From: a virus
Reading direction: 5' to 3' (one strand)
DNA: 64,000 nucleotides
Virus record (IMG/VR): IMGVR_UViG_3300031965_000011
Location: 1-64,000 of that record
The position numbers and the translations under genes are program-made. Within the stretch, counting starts at the first letter, position 1. Every line of letters starts with the position of its first letter. Shown piece by piece: positions 7,553 to 57,109 of this stretch. The notes beneath the pieces are model-generated. The model was not told the DNA's origin, ran no database searches, and saw only the letters and a program-made list of their open reading frames with translations.

Positions 7553-10401
7553 ATGAAACGCTCAAGCTGATTCTTGACTTGGTGGTCAGGAACGCCCGCG
7601 GGGGCAAGCAAGTCGCCGATGACGTACGGCGGCTGCGCGTCGAGGCCACGGGATCGTCTCGCCCGCTGAATACCTACGAGAAGAATCTCGACCGCGTTGG
7701 CCGGCAGGCGCTCAAGTCGGCTGGCGATGTCGCTAAGCTGCGGCGCGAGATCCAAGATACGAACCGTATTGTTCTCACGGACAAGCGCGGGGCCATCACG
7801 GGCGTCGCGGGCGGCGCTGCATCTGGGGGCGCAAGGGGCGCGTCTAGCCTGTCCGGACTTGCCGGCGCTGGCGGTACGCTACTGGGCGGCATTGGCTTCG
7901 GCGCGGGCGCTTTCGGCGCCGCAGCTCTGACTAGTGAGGCGATCCAACTCACCGCGTCGATAATCGCAACCCAAGGCAAGTTGGAGGGGCTGAGCGCCAC
8001 TCTTGGCGTACTGGGCGACCGATTTGGTGTTTCGCAAGCGCAGATCGCAGGTACAGAAACCCGGCTAAAGTCACTCGGGCTAACGACCGTTCAATCACGC
8101 GAGTCGATCCGCGATTTCACGCGGGCCGGAGCCAGTCAAGAAGAGACCGTCACTCTGGTTGGCTTGGCGATGGACGCCGCCGCGCGTCAAGGCCTGACTC
8201 TTGATAACGCGTTTAGCAGACTCCAGCGAGGCTTACTCAAGGCCGAGCCCGAACTTCTCGACGAGCTTGGCATTGTCATCAACCTGACGAGGACGTTTGC
8301 GAATTACGCAAGGCAGCTAGGGATATCCAACGTACAGGCGCTCACTACCGAGCAACGATCTCGAGCTATGACCGAGGCGCTTGTAGCGATGGCCGACGCG
8401 GGCGGCGAGTTTGCGGCAGTAGGCGACACCGTGGCCGGCTCGCTGTTGAGGATTGACCAAGCCCAGGGCCGCGTACATGAAGGGCTGTCGAACCTGTTTA
8501 GGGGACCAGTGCTCGCCGGGGTGCAAGCCTACGAGGCAGTACTTCTCAGTATCGAAAGCGTTATTGACAGGCTGAACGTCAAGCCCGGCGGCGCAAGCCC
8601 TTTGTTTGTAGGCCTATCGGATGCGCTCGCAGAACAGAACGAAATAGATCAGTTTCGGCCGCAACGGCGCAGCAATCGCACTGTCGTCCTCCCCAAAGAC
8701 GAGGCCGAGGAAGAGCAGTTTAGGCAACTCCTGGTAGATATCGCTAAGGCCAGGTTCGAGTCGATTGGTCAGGTTATCCCGAAGCCTGTGGACCCCGGAG
8801 GGCTGGCGCTTGCAGGCCCGACCCTCGATGCCCGATCCGAGCAACAGGAGCTCGCCAAGGAGCTACGCGAAAAACTCGATCCGGTCGCTCAACGCTTGAT
8901 CGAAAGTCTTGCGCTGGAAAAGCTGGACGGACTTGCTCGTATTCGTGCTGATCGCGATCAAACGCTAGGCAAGCTGCAGGGCGCAAGCCCTGCGCTGCTG
9001 GCTCAGATTCGCGCCGGCTTCGAAGCGCGCGAAGTACGCGAGTTGATCGCACAACGCGAACGGCAAGGCGATTTTGAGCCGCTCAAGGGTTCATTCGAGA
9101 CGCGATCGGTCGAGCTCGACGCTAACGCCCAGTTTGAGCAGAGCAAGCTAATCCAGCGCGTCCGGCAAGTGCCTGGGGATATCGCCGCATTCAACCAAGG
9201 CCGCGTCCGCCAGATCGAGCAGATCGCCGACGCCGAAGAGCGCATCATTCAACTTCGTTCGCGGGACGGCTCCGAGATTCGCGACGTTCTGGCGATCCGG
9301 CTGAGCACCATCGAGCAGATCGCCGATATCGAAGGTGAGACCGCCCGCGTCGTCGAGGGCCGCCTACAGGCCCAGCTTGACGCCAGCGTGCAACTCGCCC
9401 AACTGGAGCGCGACAGGCTGGACCGCGGTCGCCAAGCCGCTGAATCGGCCTTTGATGCGCTGGTCTCTGGCGGTAGTGGCGGATTCGACGCGTTTCTTAA
9501 AGCGCAGGTGCTTGGCATCGGCCGCACGGTCACCGGCAACCTGGCAGAGCAAGTGCTCGCCAACTCCGGCACGCTGGGTCTTGACGGCCTGATCGGCGGC
9601 CAAACCAAAGACGGCAAACTCTCGCCGATTGGCAAGCTGCTGCAAGGCACGGCGCTAGGCGTGAACCCGGCGGACTTGCAGCGCGAGAACATCACGGCGC
9701 TGAGCCTCAACACGTCGGCGACGGAACGACTCACGGCTGCGCTTTCGGGCCGTGGCGGTAGTGATGGCTCATTCTTGACGCCGTTGCGGAAGTCTATCGG
9801 CGATGACGCAGGATTCCTGGGGCTGGACTGGCTCCGAGAGAGCAGCCAAGTCACCGCCGACGCGGCCGGCACGACCAGTGAGGCAACGAAGGAAACGAAT
9901 CAGCTTCTAGCCAAGATCGTGCAAACGAGTATCTTTGGAGCTGCCGGCGCGGCCGGAATCGCTGGCGGAGTTCGTAGGGGCGGCGTGGCCGGAGCGGTCC
10001 AAACCGGCGCCGGGATCGCCTCGACGGCTGGCGGAATACTGAGCGCCCTCAAGATCGGCTCTTCGTTCGCTGGTCCCTTGGCGGCCATCGGCCTAGGCGC
10101 TAGCCTCATCGGCTCATTCTTCGGCGGCCAAGACCCACTGAAGCGTGAGAAGCAGATACAGGACGAATTAAACCGCAACCGCTTCAATGCGCCGGAGTCG
10201 ATCAACCGAGAGTTCGATACGTTTGGGCGCTCGGTCGAGTCCGGCCCGAACGGCGTGCGGATCGTGAACGTGAACGTCACGACGATGGACGCCAAGTCCT
10301 TCATGGACAACCGGGCGATGATCGGCGAAGCGGCGCGCGTGGCGTTCAACGAAGACGGCGGCGCGACGTACAGCGATTTCCGCCGCGAGTTCGAGGGCTA
10401 A
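7549..10401 (+). CDS. Tail tape measure protein
   Basis: About 950 aa, long helical/coiled regions, Gly/Ala-rich hydrophobic stretches (GGAASGGARG..., GAAGAAGIAGG...), and position after the frameshifted chaperone. Confidence 0.85.
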   Translation: MNETLKLILDLVVRNARGGKQVADDVRRLRVEATGSSRPLNTYEKNLDRVGRQALKSAGDVAKLRREIQDTNRIVLTDKRGAITGVAGGAASGGARGASSLSGLAGAGGTLLGGIGFGAGAFGAAALTSEAIQLTASIIATQGKLEGLSATLGVLGDRFGVSQAQIAGTETRLKSLGLTTVQSRESIRDFTRAGASQEETVTLVGLAMDAAARQGLTLDNAFSRLQRGLLKAEPELLDELGIVINLTRTFANYARQLGISNVQALTTEQRSRAMTEALVAMADAGGEFAAVGDTVAGSLLRIDQAQGRVHEGLSNLFRGPVLAGVQAYEAVLLSIESVIDRLNVKPGGASPLFVGLSDALAEQNEIDQFRPQRRSNRTVVLPKDEAEEEQFRQLLVDIAKARFESIGQVIPKPVDPGGLALAGPTLDARSEQQELAKELREKLDPVAQRLIESLALEKLDGLARIRADRDQTLGKLQGASPALLAQIRAGFEAREVRELIAQRERQGDFEPLKGSFETRSVELDANAQFEQSKLIQRVRQVPGDIAAFNQGRVRQIEQIADAEERIIQLRSRDGSEIRDVLAIRLSTIEQIADIEGETARVVEGRLQAQLDASVQLAQLERDRLDRGRQAAESAFDALVSGGSGGFDAFLKAQVLGIGRTVTGNLAEQVLANSGTLGLDGLIGGQTKDGKLSPIGKLLQGTALGVNPADLQRENITALSLNTSATERLTAALSGRGGSDGSFLTPLRKSIGDDAGFLGLDWLRESSQVTADAAGTTSEATKETNQLLAKIVQTSIFGAAGAAGIAGGVRRGGVAGAVQTGAGIASTAGGILSALKIGSSFAGPLAAIGLGASLIGSFFGGQDPLKREKQIQDELNRNRFNAPESINREFDTFGRSVESGPNGVRIVNVNVTTMDAKSFMDNRAMIGEAARVAFNEDGGATYSDFRREFEG

Positions 10402-52041: not shown

Positions 52042-53136
52042 TCAGACGCGCATCGGCATGACGACGTAGCGGTAGGAGTCATCGCCACCGCCCTCGCGGA
52101 ACTCAATCGCGGATTCGTGATCGGTGAACCGCATTTGGACATCAGCGCAACCAACCGCCCGTAGAAAGTCGTGGACGTAGGTGCTCTTGATCCCGAACAT
52201 GCCGGACGCCTCGCCCGAATACGTGACGGTCTCTTCGGCGTCGCCGCCGTTGTTGGCTGCCGACAATTTGAGATCGCCGTTGATCGCCATCTTGACCGCC
52301 TGCATGGCGTCGGCGAACTTCGTCACGCGGGCTAGTGAGGCCATCAGTTCTTCGCGTTTGATCTCAACCACGTGCGGGGCCTTGCTCGGCAGCACGCGCT
52401 CGTAGTCCGGGAAGTTCCCGGAGAGTTTGCGAGTGATCAGGGTGTAGCCGTTGGCTTCGATGACGACGTGATTGGTCTCGAATGCGATGGATGCCGATTC
52501 AGCCGAGCCGAACAGCCGGGCCGCGATATCGAGCGACGCTTTCGGGACGAGCGACTTGCCTTGCTCGTCGAAGGGCACGCCATTCTTAAACTTGGTTTGC
52601 GAGAGCCGATGGCCGTCCGTCGATGTGGCGATCAACAGCGCGCCCTTGAACTCGATCAGGGCCGCGATCAGGGTGTAGCGCGACTCCTCATTGGCGATAG
52701 CGAAGCCCACGCGGGATTGGATCTGTGAGAGCCAAGAGCCGGGGATCGTGTACCGCTTGACGTCCTTCTCGTTGAATCGCGGCCGCTCCGGGAAGTTTTC
52801 GACGGACATGCCGGGAAGGGCCGTGCGGGACTTGACGCACTTGACCGTCAGTTTCATCGCCGGGGTTGACTCAAGCGTCGCATCGGCGTGGGGCAGCAGA
52901 TTGAAGTAATCCGCCATGCGTTTGGCCGGGACGGTGATCGAGCCTTCTTTCTCGACGTTGCACGGGATCGACAGCGATATCCATCGCTCTAGATCGGAAG
53001 CGTCCAGGTAGAGCTTTCCGCCTTTCGCCTCCAGCTTCACGTTCGACAAAACGGGGATGGTCGATTTCTTCTCGACCGCAAGCACGGCGGTTGCCAGCGC
53101 TTGAGATAGGTCTTTGACGGGGATGGTGAGTTTCAT
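52042..53136 (-). CDS. dnaN: DNA polymerase III beta sliding clamp
   Basis: STIPVLSNVKLEAKGGKLYLDASDLE...ITVPAKRMADY...STDGHRLS and a length of about 364 aa. Confidence 0.8.
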   Translation of the reverse strand: MKLTIPVKDLSQALATAVLAVEKKSTIPVLSNVKLEAKGGKLYLDASDLERWISLSIPCNVEKEGSITVPAKRMADYFNLLPHADATLESTPAMKLTVKCVKSRTALPGMSVENFPERPRFNEKDVKRYTIPGSWLSQIQSRVGFAIANEESRYTLIAALIEFKGALLIATSTDGHRLSQTKFKNGVPFDEQGKSLVPKASLDIAARLFGSAESASIAFETNHVVIEANGYTLITRKLSGNFPDYERVLPSKAPHVVEIKREELMASLARVTKFADAMQAVKMAINGDLKLSAANNGGDAEETVTYSGEASGMFGIKSTYVHDFLRAVGCADVQMRFTDHESAIEFREGGGDDSYRYVVMPMRV

Positions 53137-53402
53137 GCGGCGTCCTGTCGGTCAAGATAGATGGATAATTGATGTCTAGCGCTGCTCAATCTTGAGTCGG
53201 CTTCGATTTCTCGGCAGACCACGCAGTCATCATTGCGAGTGCTGCCGTGTTCGCCGCACAATGGACGGCCATCGCCGCCCTCCATGATTTCTTTGTCGGC
53301 AAGTGCTTCCTCGGCCGAGATAACCCGAGCGGCGTGGATGTGCTCGCGGTTGCCAAATGAAGGCTTTCCCTGAAGAGTCTCTACTGCTTCTTCGTAGTTC
53401 AT
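53133..53402 (-). CDS. Small hypothetical protein
   Basis: 89-aa ORF coupled on both sides. Confidence 0.35.
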   Translation of the reverse strand: MNYEEAVETLQGKPSFGNREHIHAARVISAEEALADKEIMEGGDGRPLCGEHGSTRNDDCVVCREIEADSRLSSARHQLSIYLDRQDAA

Positions 53403-54658
53403 GCCGCCTCCGCTTCGTCCGGCTCTCCGGCGCGTCTGATTTTCAACTCGGTCCGTACGTTGGCGCGGCCCATCAAGTCCAGCGCTTCGCTCATGCCCTC
53501 GCGCTTCTTGGCTTTGGCGTAGGACTTCAGTTGCGAGGCGGACACCTTGAGCGACCCCAGGGGCACGTCGAACGTCTCAGCGACGCTCTGCGCGTCGGCA
53601 ACGGTGTACTCTCGCGATTGCTTCTCTTCGCGCACGGCCTCATAGCCGCCGCCCATCTCCAGCCGGCCGCCATGCTCGGCAAGCCAGGGGTTGAGCGCTT
53701 TGCGGCCTTGCGAGGCGATAGCCTCGGCGATAGCGACCTTGCGAGCCACTTCCAGGGCGTCGTCTTCGGTCTGGATCGGAGGCAAAAGCGGCGCCATGCT
53801 CAGCAGCTCTTGACGGGCTGGGCATGTCACGCGGCAGTAGTTGCACAGACCGGATTCGGTGTTGACCGTGAGCGCGTTTTTTGCGAGCGCCTTAACGGCT
53901 GTCTGTTTCGCGTCCTTGGCCTTGGCGATGATGCCCAGCTCGTCGAGCAGTTCCGTTTCGCCGGTTTCCGCGACTCTTTGTAGCCGCGATAATCGCTCGA
54001 CCTTTTCGACGATGTTCTCGCGCTGGCGGACGGCGGCGTGGATCATCGCTTGCATCCAGGGCAGGTCTGACCGCTGGTAGGTGCGCGATCGCTCGGCGCG
54101 CACGCGGGCGAACTCCCAGCGGAACTCGACAATCTCTGCTTCCGGGTAATGCGCCATGAGAAGCGCGGCGTATTGCACCGTCTCGTAGTCGTGGACGTTG
54201 TTCGTCGACCAGCCGGACTTGTAATCGGGGATCGTGAAGACGTTCGGCGATTCTTGCATGATCAGGTCGAGCGTGCCGCTGGCGTAGCCTGACCGCTCGC
54301 CGGGCGTTGATCCGGGCCGATGCTCCAGCGGTTGAAAGTCTTGATCGACCGACAGGAAAAGCTCGGTCGCCAGCACGGTCGATAAGTCGTAGGGAATCGC
54401 GTCGAAGCGAATCACGTCGACCACTTCCGGCTCTGCGTTGTTTTGCCTGAGCCACGCCTCAACCCATTCGCGGTCTTCGGCTTGATCGGTTTCCAGGAGA
54501 TGGTTAATGTATGCGCGGCGGTAGTCGTGGAACTCGGTTCCGGCGCGACGGAGGGCGCTATCAGATTGCGGCGCGTTTCCAATAATGTGTGCCGCATGGA
54601 ACGTCTCGCAGTGAAGCGTGCGTTCCAGCGACTTGGTCATTGTCGTCGGTTTGTTCAT
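53399..54658 (-). CDS. PD-(D/E)XK (RecB/Cas4-like) exonuclease
   Basis: GTLDLIMQ...FTIPDYKSG nuclease core and the C-terminal Cys cluster CNYCRVTCPARQ. Confidence 0.6.
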   Translation of the reverse strand: MNKPTTMTKSLERTLHCETFHAAHIIGNAPQSDSALRRAGTEFHDYRRAYINHLLETDQAEDREWVEAWLRQNNAEPEVVDVIRFDAIPYDLSTVLATELFLSVDQDFQPLEHRPGSTPGERSGYASGTLDLIMQESPNVFTIPDYKSGWSTNNVHDYETVQYAALLMAHYPEAEIVEFRWEFARVRAERSRTYQRSDLPWMQAMIHAAVRQRENIVEKVERLSRLQRVAETGETELLDELGIIAKAKDAKQTAVKALAKNALTVNTESGLCNYCRVTCPARQELLSMAPLLPPIQTEDDALEVARKVAIAEAIASQGRKALNPWLAEHGGRLEMGGGYEAVREEKQSREYTVADAQSVAETFDVPLGSLKVSASQLKSYAKAKKREGMSEALDLMGRANVRTELKIRRAGEPDEAEAA

Positions 54659-54677
54659 CAGCTACCGAATCTCCTTT

Positions 54678-54751
54678 CGTCAATTGACGCCTCGCCTAGC
54701 CTTGCCGGGCCCCGCCCGGCCCCGCCTCGCCTAGCCCGGCCCAGCCTTGCC
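54678..54751. repeat. 12-bp perfect palindrome CGTCAATTGACG abutting 13 in-phase NNGCC pentamers
   Basis: Pentamers run 54687-54751 with GCC at every fifth position, with no phase break. Confidence 0.9.
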
Positions 54752-55429
54752 CGGCAATACTGAATCAAGTTTTTCCAACACGAAACGCCCGTGCGGTCCT
54801 GGCGATTTCTTGGAACTGGGCCTCCAGTCGCCGATGCCCTTGTACTGCCCAGAGAACGAAATTATGTCCCGCAAGGCGCCTTCTGTTAGTTGCTCATCCC
54901 AAACTGCGAGACGAAACGCCATCGCCCATTGTGGAAACATCGGACGGACGCGGATATGCTTGGAAGAGCCAACCGCGGCGCGCTTGATCTTTAGCTCGAA
55001 GCCCAATTCCTCAAGGGCATGCTTGTGTGTCAGCAGGGATGGTTCGTTCTCAAGCGCTGAAATTCGCTTCCAGTGGATCTTCTTGCCGTTGACCAACACA
55101 GGGACCAGCGAGCCGGCTAGCGCCATGCCGGATTGCGTTTGGCTCTTGAACGTCTTGCCGTTCTTTCCGCCGGGAACCGGAACCATCGCGCCGCCCTCCA
55201 TGAAGCACTTTTGGAAGTTGTCGGTTTCGATGCCGATAAACTCTCCGTCGTGATAGAAGCAACCGATGTAGCGCCACGCAGGGGTTCGGTCGTCGCCAGC
55301 CCGGCTTTTTCGCTTATTCGCCGGGTCGTCCTTCCAGGCGTCCATTTGGTCCGCCCATTCGATATCGTCGCGATGGAGAATCAGCGGGCTTGATCCGCGT
55401 ACTGTTACTTCATAGGTCCTGATGTCCAA
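54731..55429 (-). CDS. Hypothetical protein of the recombination module
   Basis: 232-aa ORF, TTG start after GGGAG. Its last codons run into the pentamer tract. Confidence 0.45.
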   Translation of the reverse strand: MDIRTYEVTVRGSSPLILHRDDIEWADQMDAWKDDPANKRKSRAGDDRTPAWRYIGCFYHDGEFIGIETDNFQKCFMEGGAMVPVPGGKNGKTFKSQTQSGMALAGSLVPVLVNGKKIHWKRISALENEPSLLTHKHALEELGFELKIKRAAVGSSKHIRVRPMFPQWAMAFRLAVWDEQLTEGALRDIISFSGQYKGIGDWRPSSKKSPGPHGRFVLEKLDSVLPGKAGPG

Positions 55430-55443
55430 TTCGTTTCTCCCTT

Positions 55444-55512
55444 AGTCAATTGACTCCTTGCCTCGCCACGCCCAGCCTTGCCCAGCCTGGCCGCGCCCTG
55501 CCCAGCCCGGCC
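55444..55512. repeat. 12-bp perfect palindrome AGTCAATTGACT followed by 11 in-phase NNGCC pentamers
   Basis: Pentamers run 55458-55512. Same architecture as 54678-54751. Confidence 0.9.
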
Positions 55513-55520
55513 GCAATCAG

Positions 55521-55667
55521 TCAGTACGGCACCTTGGCGTACTCCAGCGCGAAAGCCACGACCGTCGATAGCGGGATCGCTCCGACGCGCCCGACGTGCC
55601 GCTCGTAAAATTCGCCGGGACAGCGGACATACCAGTGCTTGGCGCGAATGCGGATGCGCGGTTTCAT
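55521..55667 (-). CDS. Small ORF (48 aa, below the track threshold)
   Basis: Hand translation MKPRIRIRAKHWYVRCPGEFYERHVGRVGAIPLSTVVAFALEYAKVPY. ATGA coupling to the upstream gene. Confidence 0.3.
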   Translation of the reverse strand: MKPRIRIRAKHWYVRCPGEFYERHVGRVGAIPLSTVVAFALEYAKVPY

Positions 55668-56293
55668 TTCGCCCCCGTAACGGCCTCAGCGATGAGCTCG
55701 CTCAGCGTGTCCGACTTCTCGAACCAACGCGGATTGGCGACGAGCTTGAGCTTGGAGGGGGTGAGTCCCATCGTGCGCCAGCCGGCCATACGGAAGACGA
55801 AGCCGGGCACGCGGGCTCTTGTGGTTGCCGGGTCGATCAGCGTGAACAGAGGCTTATCGGGGAAGGCTCGCCAGGTGAACCCCATCGCTTGACGGATCAG
55901 CTCGCTTGAGAGAAATCCGCTGTCATTGCGGAAGACCACCTGTGCGACCTTGCCGCGGTCGATGGCCACGAACACGGCGCTGTCGTCTTCCGGCGCGAGG
56001 ATGATGGCCGGGTGTTTCGGCGGTAGCGATTTGCCGGGCCTCTCCAGTTGATAGAGGGATAGCATGCGGTCGGAGATCGGAGGACGCCCGGCGCGGGGAA
56101 TCCAGAAGTTGTCCGGCGGCAACGGCTTGTCGGGGATTGCGGAGCGGATGGACCGGAACGTAGCAACGGCTTTCTCTGCTCGCTCTACGAGCGCACGCGC
56201 TACCCACGTGCCGTTAACGGGCTGGGGTAGTGCGCGAAGTCGATCAACCTCGCTAGATAGGCTGTGTTCGATGAAATCCAGAGTTTCTTTCAT
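55664..56293 (-). CDS. Hypothetical protein
   Basis: The track ORF 55664..56731 is trimmed to ATG 56293 (MKETLDF...), which is ATGA-coupled to 56290..56685. Confidence 0.45.
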   Translation of the reverse strand: MKETLDFIEHSLSSEVDRLRALPQPVNGTWVARALVERAEKAVATFRSIRSAIPDKPLPPDNFWIPRAGRPPISDRMLSLYQLERPGKSLPPKHPAIILAPEDDSAVFVAIDRGKVAQVVFRNDSGFLSSELIRQAMGFTWRAFPDKPLFTLIDPATTRARVPGFVFRMAGWRTMGLTPSKLKLVANPRWFEKSDTLSELIAEAVTGAK

Positions 56294-56685
56294 CGCAATC
56301 CCTCCAGCGCGTAGATCGCAGCCAGCGCGGCGATGCAAAACAAGACCGTGGCCTTGATGTCGCCAATCAGGCCGGAGCGCATGACGTTGTCGCCAAGCCC
56401 TTCGGTCCGTGCCCGCTCTTCGGACTCTTTGCAGGCCTCGGCATAGCCCTTCTCGGCCGCCAGATAGGCGCGGTAGAATCCGTAGCGACGCGCGGCGCGG
56501 CGGAATAGGTAGCGGCGAAGATTCAGGCGCATGGAGCGCTTGACCGCGTCGTTGGCCTCGATGGTCGGATCCAGTGCGTTTTCGTCGCCGACCAGCACTT
56601 CGCGACCATTCAGAATGTTGCTCGGCTCCCAGGCCATGCTCATATAACCCCCAGAGCGGACAGTAGGCAGGTCCGCAGACTGCAT
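56290..56685 (-). CDS. Hypothetical protein with a C-terminal hydrophobic helix
   Basis: ORF with ...VLFCIAALAAIYAL. The start may instead be the internal ATG near 56643. Confidence 0.35.
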   Translation of the reverse strand: MQSADLPTVRSGGYMSMAWEPSNILNGREVLVGDENALDPTIEANDAVKRSMRLNLRRYLFRRAARRYGFYRAYLAAEKGYAEACKESEERARTEGLGDNVMRSGLIGDIKATVLFCIAALAAIYALEGLR

Positions 56686-56852
56686 CGTCCAAGAATGTCA
56701 GCGGCGTCTCTACGCGCTCGCCATTGCTCATAGGCGCAATCGCTGGCGGGCGTCACGGCGCGGTTGATCTTGTTGCGCAGCTCGGGCGGCACCCGCAGCA
56801 GAACGCGCTCGAAATCGTCGATCGCGGTTTCGTACTTCTTGAAAATCCTCAC
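56640..56852 (-). CDS. Small hypothetical protein
   Basis: 70-aa ORF in the operon. Confidence 0.35.
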   Translation of the reverse strand: MRIFKKYETAIDDFERVLLRVPPELRNKINRAVTPASDCAYEQWRARRDAADILGRCSLRTCLLSALGVI

Positions 56853-57109
56853 AGCGACTCCAGTTGGGCGGCTTCGTTGACAGCCAAGCCGGCAGCGAAT
56901 CCGATAGTCAAAAAGTGAATGGCGATGAATGTCGCCAGCTCGTCGGGATCTCGCCCGGCGCAGCGGGCCCGGATGTCGTCAAGATGCGGCATGGCGTCGC
57001 TTGCGGCGAAGGCCACGACGGCACTGACGTCCAGCGGTCGGTAGCGTAGGTCGCTGACCGCGGCGTCCACGGCGGCGACTTGTTGCGCATGTTGTGCGAC
57101 GTGGTTCAC
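56849..57109 (-). CDS. Small hypothetical protein
   Basis: 86-aa ORF in the operon. Confidence 0.35.
   Translation of the reverse strand: MNHVAQHAQQVAAVDAAVSDLRYRPLDVSAVVAFAASDAMPHLDDIRARCAGRDPDELATFIAIHFLTIGFAAGLAVNEAAQLESL

Follow-up and report, generated by a model that had tools for sequence, protein, structure and literature searches.

We conclude that positions 54678–55512 of a 64,000-nt stretch of viral DNA (IMG/VR record IMGVR_UViG_3300031965_000011, positions 1 to 64,000; the whole stretch is called the window here) very probably constitute a compact cassette of the VIPR (Viral Interference Programmable Repeat) kind, read from the minus strand in the order vrRNA gene, vipr, vrRNA gene. 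The two tracts of phased pentamers found there, together with the palindrome attached to each, are in all likelihood the genes for two vrRNAs of a phage VIPR system, with vipr, a gene of 232 codons, lying between them; this assignment is drawn from sequence anatomy and homology. The original prediction, made from the letters of the window, had picked out the signature that defines vrRNAs, but it assigned this to the wrong genes and wrongly placed it at the level of DNA or of cis regulation; it had not recognized the class of element, which has now been described in 2026 preprints.

VIPR is a CRISPR-like system of RNA-guided DNA silencing that comprises the protein Vipr and its vrRNAs (10.64898/2026.04.26.720920, 10.64898/2026.04.26.720927). 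Vipr is a RAMP homologue of roughly 20 kDa whose gene is flanked by intergenic vrRNA genes. Each vrRNA is made up of 9–16 tandem YNNGG (GGY/NN) repeats and, after them, a structured 3′ tail that does not vary. The NN dinucleotides determine which double-stranded DNA is targeted; the target is read with one nucleotide skipped, mostly the wobble base of a codon, and binding of Vipr–vrRNA silences transcription, the natural targets being competing phages, prophages and satellites (10.64898/2026.04.26.720920). Cryo-electron microscopy of the complex of Escherichia phage SUSP1 revealed one protomer per repeat. H17 and D177 read G1, R138 and W178 read G2, and Y3 is read in a pocket of which R179 is part; the RNA is capped by a pseudoknot at its 3′ end, and the complex assembles on DNA in the 3′ to 5′ direction (10.64898/2026.04.26.720927).

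The minus strand is the sense strand for all genes of the region, and along it the elements follow one another as (GGCNN)n, GG, palindrome, Shine–Dalgarno sequence and start codon. Reading of the sequence and a scan of the window bore out the 13 consecutive NNGCC pentamers at 54687–54751 and the 11 at 55458–55512 that had been noticed originally, as well as the palindromes CGTCAATTGACG (54678–54689) and AGTCAATTGACT (55444–55455), each abutting one tract. The palindrome core is indeed unique, since neither GTCAATTGAC nor even the shorter TCAATTGA has a further copy anywhere in the 64-kb window. That the tracts abut their palindromes is true of both, with the qualification that the 13th pentamer of the 54687–54751 tract (minus-strand GGCGT) has 3 nt in common with its palindrome; the two elements therefore have one common layout, (GGCNN)n with n = 12 and 11, followed by GG and N-GUC-AAUU-GAC-N′. 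The Shine–Dalgarno sequence, which had been put about 8 nt beyond the palindrome, actually lies 2–3 nt past it, and the start codon follows after a further 7 nt (TTG, 55429) or 12 nt (ATG, 54658).

Both tracts are perfectly phased and contain no degenerate unit; their 11 and 12 GGCNN units fall within the published range of 9–16, lie on the vipr strand and flank vipr, the downstream tract overlapping the final 21 nt of the 232-codon open reading frame (ORF; stop codon 54731–54733). The likeness between the tracts is one of scaffold only: when they are aligned from the 3′ end none of the 11 NN dinucleotides is common to both, and eight distinct dinucleotides are used in either tract. With a GGC frequency of 0.027 on the minus strand, about 3e-13 runs of at least 11 units are expected, and chance is therefore excluded for the tracts, as had been asserted of their strict 5-bp phase. 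Besides these two, phased runs on the two strands of the 64 kb reach 3 units at most, no further place emerges when the criterion is relaxed to at least 6 of 10 phased GGY, and the tracts are the sole repeats in 53000–57000.

The product of the gene between the tracts is a homologue of SUSP1 Vipr and, as judged from profile comparison and a predicted structure, a Cas7-like RAMP. No Pfam family matched the 232-aa protein, the sole match being PHROG 4652, a family of unknown function. The profile of its family matched one solved structure, PDB 36pp (‘SUSP1 Vipr protein’), with an E value of 4.5e-14, and the single sequence reached the same entry in phmmer with E 3.4e-07. When the family profile was aligned by hhalign with SUSP1 Vipr (sequence taken from its GenBank record), the match had 98.5% probability and E 2.6e-15 over 184 columns, placing residues 7–224 against 2–191. 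An AlphaFold2 model of the protein (pLDDT 90.1, pTM 0.85) was compared by Foldseek with a PDB library that predates the Vipr entries, and roughly the top 40 matches were Cas7-family RAMPs (Csm3, type VII Cas7, Cmr and Csf2), the best of them, Csm3 and type VII Cas7, having E 5e-5 and a TM score of about 0.5. In the model the G-loop is formed by GQYKGIGDWRP and a β-hairpin (residues 145–165) bears R160 and R162. Residues H19, R162, D201, W202 and R203 align with SUSP1 H17, R138, D177, W178 and R179; among 33 homologues H19, R162, W202 and R203 are invariant and D201 is nearly so, and the ORF itself is intact. By analogy with SUSP1, the window’s Vipr is expected to polymerize on vrRNA with one protomer per pentamer. 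The earlier suggestion of a protein-binding array was thus right in substance, since in VIPR every GGY, once transcribed, is gripped by a Vipr protomer of its own. We also observed that the window’s Vipr is some 10–12 residues longer than most homologues (218–222 aa), because its frame continues into the downstream vrRNA tract (54731–54770, ending ...LPGKAGPG), where a GGCTA-GGC unit supplies the TAG stop codon.

The association between tract and gene extends well beyond the window. A search of IMG/VR with the window protein alone returned 23 loci at 51–63% identity, and to these we added 32 loci, proviral or genomic, from isolates and metagenome-assembled genomes spanning many phyla. Protein homology alone served to choose the loci, and a phased run was scored when it had at least 6 units and lay no more than 600 nt from the gene. 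Sense-strand runs lie near the vipr homologue in 51 of the 55 loci (23/23 viral and 28/32 genomic), and antisense runs in none. Those of the viral loci comprise 6–24 units, always on the gene strand and sometimes several in tandem, with a tract upstream of the gene in 17 and downstream in 19; downstream tracts are present in 24 of the 32 genomic relatives. Around vipr the viral loci have 2.15 runs per kb, vs 0.016 per kb farther off, a difference of about 130-fold. In the opposite direction, a scan of IMG/VR by tract pattern alone (eight phased units ending GGCAAGG) returned at least 120 viral contigs, and on this count the window’s clade is large; when the window protein alone served as tblastn query, a homologue was detected in 28 of the tract-pattern contigs listed, and the 232-aa family was the largest (44/164, among the matches listed) of those encoded directly downstream of tracts. 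Since the linkage holds both from protein to tract and from tract to protein, the tracts belong to vipr and not to the recombination genes. As a positive control, the run-finder recovers SUSP1 vrRNA1 (11 GGY units) upstream of SUSP1 vipr and therefore detects true vrRNAs; it also recovers the degenerate array downstream of SUSP1 vap1.

These comparisons bear on several earlier proposals. The recommended search of the genome and its relatives for phased GGCNN runs proved informative, finding only two places in the 64 kb and runs beside vipr in 51/55 homologous loci. In the same loci, as in the window, the tracts flank the single gene vipr and are not, as had been supposed, dosage elements of two recombination genes. 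A dispersed host repeat of the REP-like type, which had been named as the finding that would overturn the phage-linked interpretation, was looked for and rejected: there are two copies in 64 kb, both beside vipr, and in the relatives tracts are some 130-fold denser within 600 nt of that gene. The same phage recurs in three further contigs from different samples; these are identical in sequence, with the same vipr ORF, protein and vrRNAs, and therefore hold no information on the turnover of NN. A search of IMG/VR for the window’s own tail with two units matched nothing, and so yielded no sister cassette that combines this tail with other guides, and a DNA similarity search of GenBank phages gave no match. 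Proviruses of this clade are found in metagenome-assembled genomes classified under Steroidobacteraceae, Phycisphaerales, Vicinamibacterales, Nitrospira, Rubrivivax, Geothrix and Planctomycetota.

In both copies the predicted minimum-free-energy fold of the palindrome is a 4-bp stem with an AAUU loop directly after the terminal GG. Between the two copies the outermost pair differs on both sides, being C:G in the downstream and A:U in the upstream element, a compensatory change. We examined 218 terminal tracts of relatives for a 4-bp Watson–Crick stem with a loop of 3–6 nt, scanning fixed offsets and using shuffles as control, and found a perfect stem in 96 (shuffles 26 +/- 4.5, maximum 39), which begins exactly 2 nt past the last unit in 79; a looser count of hairpins was uninformative (326 vs 274 in the control). 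Thirty different arm pairs occur among the relatives (e.g. GGUC/GACC, GCGC/GCGC, GUGC/GCAC and GGCC/GGCC), and the loop lengths differ. Because position and pairing are kept while the sequence changes, the palindrome is best read as the hairpin of an RNA 3′ tail, and not as the operator of a dimeric regulator or the TTGAC −35 pair that had been suggested; a scan for a sigma-70-like promoter at the palindromes found none, and no −10 partner.

The same evidence speaks to an explanation at the level of DNA, by which the palindrome would be an operator or promoter and the tract a set of iterons or an origin, a G-quadruplex or a REP-like repeat. There is indeed a TTGAC in the palindrome, the tract is rich in G and has GG at 5-nt intervals, and the location is a replication and recombination module; set against this are the missing −10 partner, the strict strand asymmetry (0 antisense runs in 55 loci), the conservation of pairing but not of sequence, the invariant C after GG, which G-quadruplexes leave unexplained, and the occurrence of tracts only beside vipr rather than dispersed. 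We consider this explanation scarcely credible.

Many relatives have a longer tail, which we call type B and which consists of GGCAAG, a hairpin GCUG(N3-5)CAGC and a second, variable hairpin, and ends in a conserved CAGUGCAA, CGGUGCGAAU or CGAUGUA; it often lies between successive vrRNAs. Examples are L004 4783–4850, L016 3842–3895, L020 2413–2475, L013 2480–2530 and L019 4756–4815, among others (these and other L numbers are our labels for individual loci). The type B tail could be a processing element or a pseudoknot; it matched nothing in Rfam, hammerhead models included, at E up to 1.

Beyond the anatomy and the homology, the mechanism that we propose is inferred from the SUSP1 and Pseudomonas fulva systems. 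Each tract would be transcribed, and Vipr protomers would bind one per pentamer, gripping the invariant G-G-C so that the two variable bases stay exposed. These dinucleotides, 11 or 12 per vrRNA, would then pair with a DNA target read as xNN xNN ..., with one base skipped per unit, and binding there would silence transcription, most probably on a competing phage, prophage or satellite.

A number of results weigh against the VIPR assignment and the function that it implies. VIPR function has been shown only for type II systems, whose Vipr is about 22% identical to the window protein, and the source is a preprint. No homologue of the candidate vap (a gene of about 165 codons that follows vipr in 18 relatives) is present in the window. 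The tail hairpin taken alone is weak (−3.2 kcal/mol, z about 0, not significant), and no promoter or terminator consensus was found by scanning the flanks of the tracts. In target searches that used exact patterns only (published targets were scored at ≥80% NN match), no one-skip match was found in IMG/VR for either full guide or for their 3′- or 5′-proximal 10-unit sub-guides, nor did the downstream guide have an exact one-skip match in the metagenome collection.

The upstream guide has a single perfect one-skip match in the metagenome collection (L144 4556–4587, Ga0315905_10006290), which was rejected as a chance occurrence: it falls in a 1876-aa ORF of Sushi/SCR repeats with the skip at codon position 2, and there are no phage genes around the site in the contig. 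A test of four rules with 352 guides against 1.2 Mb found one skip not enriched over 0, 2 or 3 skips, the database being too small. Self-targets are likewise lacking within the 64 kb, where the best matches (15/22 and 16/24) are close to the mean maxima of shuffled guides (15.2 and 16.3); the authors of the published VIPR systems also report no self-targeting.

A decayed or re-purposed VIPR also has to be weighed, one that no longer guides DNA silencing, for instance for want of vap or of a living target, or that uses another pairing rule or an RNA target. The failure to find a target, the lack of a vap-like gene and the establishment of the skip rule in type II systems only would fit such a state. 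Both tracts, however, are perfectly phased, none of the five GGY-reading residues is lost, the ORF is unbroken and is identical in three further contigs from different samples, and in SUSP1 vipr and one vrRNA suffice for repression, vap1 only enhancing it (2026 VIPR preprints). Considering these points, we regard decay or re-purposing as very improbable.

A third explanation, which takes up the dosage or attenuator idea of the original prediction, makes the element a cis-acting leader, in which a multimeric RNA-binding protein, either Vipr or a TRAP-like ring, would coat (GGCNN)n, occlude the ribosome-binding site and so set the translation of vipr and of the nuclease gene. At the Bacillus subtilis trp leader, TRAP binds about 11 triplets spaced 2–3 nt apart, each held by one subunit of the homo-oligomer, and the sites can overlap the ribosome-binding site; TRAP is a ring of small β-sandwich subunits that recognizes GAG or UAG triplets, separated by spacers devoid of information, and acts solely in cis. 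The 11–13 triplets with 2-nt spacers of the window resemble this textbook site, the tail hairpins end 2–3 nt before a Shine–Dalgarno sequence, and in relatives a median of only 39 nt separates the end of the tract from the next start codon. Unlike TRAP, the window’s protein is predicted to form a RAMP filament rather than a ring of small β-sandwich subunits, and the TRAP-like ring as the leading explanation was dropped when the gene between the tracts was identified as a Vipr homologue. Moreover, many relatives have two to eight tandem tract-plus-tail units of which the last alone abuts a gene, the NN dinucleotides differ wholly between the copies, which fits guides rather than an operator, the downstream gene varies among relatives, and a related phage has the same nuclease gene without any tract (L184, below). 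The homologous SUSP1 RNAs are discrete small RNAs that act in trans (2026 VIPR preprints). A leader function in place of a guide function is therefore improbable in our view, and it could be an added effect rather than an alternative. Within the VIPR assignment, the tracts may as a secondary effect influence in cis how the neighbouring genes are translated, since in this high-G+C clade the vrRNAs form part of the operon and each tail hairpin ends 2–3 nt before the ribosome-binding site of the next gene, first vipr and then the nuclease gene. That Vipr loading or vrRNA 3′-end processing on the polycistronic transcript doubles as translational feedback on vipr and the downstream gene or, more speculatively, that the nuclease is a non-canonical accessory, we think unlikely; if true, a nuclease serving as accessory protein would make a phage-borne VIPR cut its targets instead of silencing them.

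The features of the cassette and of its borders are collected in Table 1.

Table 1. Predicted features of the putative VIPR cassette and its borders, in order along the minus strand (window coordinates)
Feature	Position	Strand	Description
48-aa ORF	55521..55667	-	Upstream border of the cassette
vrRNA-up repeat (putative guide) region	55456..55512	-	11 GGCNN units + terminal GG; directly upstream of vipr; NN series CG TG AG GC CA TG AA TG GT GA AA
vrRNA-up 3′ tail	55444..55455	-	Predicted hairpin AGUC-AAUU-GACU
Shine–Dalgarno sequence of vipr	55437-55443	-	AAGGGAG; with the TTG start of vipr at 55429, directly after the vrRNA-up tail
vipr	54731..55429	-	232 aa; predicted RAMP (Cas7-like); between both tracts
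vrRNA-down repeat (putative guide) region	54690..54751	-	12 GGCNN units + GG; NN series AA TG CG TA GA GG CG GG CC AA TA GA
vrRNA-down 3′ tail	54678..54689	-	Predicted hairpin CGUC-AAUU-GACG
GGAG motif	54671-54674	-	After the vrRNA-down tail; followed by the ATG of the nuclease gene at 54658
Nuclease gene	53399..54658	-	419 aa; PD-(D/E)XK (Cas4/RecB-type); homologues carry PF12705

The locus lies between RecT and a nuclease, DnaN and DnaB. Its borders are defined by a related phage contig, L184 (logan SRR10895356_41833, 1–1800, compared with window 54659–55667), whose nuclease gene has 78% nucleotide identity to that of the window and in which a homologous 48-aa ORF (MKPRIRI...KVPY), a 100-aa Cys-rich ORF and the nuclease gene follow one another with no vipr and no tract. 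Because L184 has the flanks without vipr or tracts, vrRNA–vipr–vrRNA appears to be an 862-bp accessory cassette swapped between conserved flanks; the presence of the 48-aa ORF and the nuclease gene in L184 without the tracts also runs counter to the original view that these are tied to the recombination genes. The 419-aa nuclease, which has no homologue in about 175 VIPR-bearing loci, is probably a partner of RecT rather than a Vap, and not part of the system. A vap gene beside vipr is typical of VIPR, and not universal (2026 VIPR preprints). A weak tblastn match of the candidate vap at window 8677–8936 was rejected, as it lies inside a 955-aa tape-measure ORF. Among the neighbours, Pfam, NCBIfam and PADLOC gave no matches to cas genes, and there is no CRISPR array in 53000–57000. 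At 55664–56731 of the window, the mechanically called 355-aa ORF corresponds to two genes (117 and 209 aa) in the public calls for an identical contig (L179), and only the C-terminal part of the 355-aa ORF matches a PHROG (24928, function unknown).

Additional observations were made among the relatives. Uninterrupted runs of 26–29 units occur at L047 3462–3606, L061 4369–4513, L169 2803–2942 and L072 6635–6764, beyond the published range of 9–16; each may be a pair of guides joined in one phase (the ‘staggered’ arrays of the VIPR authors) or a single guide of unusual length. Gordonia phage Trine gp41 (MH271318.1) and Mycobacterium phage LittleE gp34, both annotated as hypothetical, are Vipr homologues. 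In Trine a 12-unit GGY tract (L178 2628–2687) comes right after gp41; because it sits inside the annotated 5′ part of the coding sequence of gp40, the annotated start codon of gp40 is probably mis-called. In L182 (3629–4500, JGI Ga0247727_10001183) a 213-aa ORF between RecT and a homologous PD-(D/E)XK nuclease is weakly similar to the Vipr C terminus (hhalign 17%), with GIGEGRP in place of GDWRP, and is followed by degenerate GGC-phased tracts and a 157-aa ORF; this locus may represent a divergent VIPR type with a different repeat-reading loop.

The assignment accounts in full for a strange-looking sequence and re-annotates a hypothetical 232-aa phage gene, and with it PHROG 4652 and about 1,200 database homologues, as Vipr. 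It also extends a system so far characterized in Escherichia coli and Pseudomonas phages to environmental phages of high G+C content whose tails are simple hairpins. It leaves the known VIPR mechanism unchanged. The window offers a very compact natural cassette, with two guides and one protein in 862 bp and no vap, and its VIPR-less sister phage L184 completes a natural presence/absence pair that defines the cassette borders.

Finally, considering the known systems, the window’s VIPR is a vap-less, compact member of a recently described kind, carried by an uncultured high-G+C phage. Its nearest characterized counterpart in this comparison is the type II VIPR of SUSP1 (Vipr, vap1 and vrRNA1–4; PDB 36pp), with which it shares a protein that is homologous over nearly its full length, at about 22% identity, and has the same GGY-reading residues. 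SUSP1 likewise has GGY/NN tracts of 11–12 units on the sense strand that flank vipr and are followed by a structured 3′ tail, and both loci lie in the early DNA-metabolism region of a phage, that of SUSP1 beside DNA ligase. The two systems differ in several respects. Y is always C in the window and mostly T in SUSP1, tracking the G+C content of the genome, and the window’s tail is a 4-bp hairpin with an AAUU loop where SUSP1 has a pseudoknot, which the P. fulva VIPR also lacks. The window’s tail abuts the next ribosome-binding site, whereas SUSP1 vrRNA1 is surrounded by about 100 nt and has a visible TTGACA/TATACT promoter. Moreover, the window has one vrRNA on each side of vipr, where SUSP1 has one upstream and three downstream, and, unlike SUSP1, it has no vap between vipr and the downstream vrRNA, which overlaps the end of vipr. 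Rfam has no counterpart of these RNAs, there being no match in the window at gathering thresholds and no relevant match in seven related loci at E up to 1.

The Vipr model is structurally closest to the Cas7 backbones of class 1 CRISPR-Cas systems (Csm3 of type III-A and Cas7 of type VII), which assemble into a helical filament in which each subunit covers a fixed step of RNA and bases are flipped at regular intervals. The step is 5 nt in VIPR, of which 2 pair, as compared with 6 nt in class 1 CRISPR, of which 5 pair. Unlike the guides of class 1 CRISPR-Cas, the putative guides of the window are hard-wired in the genome rather than acquired, and the system that would use them is borne by a phage.

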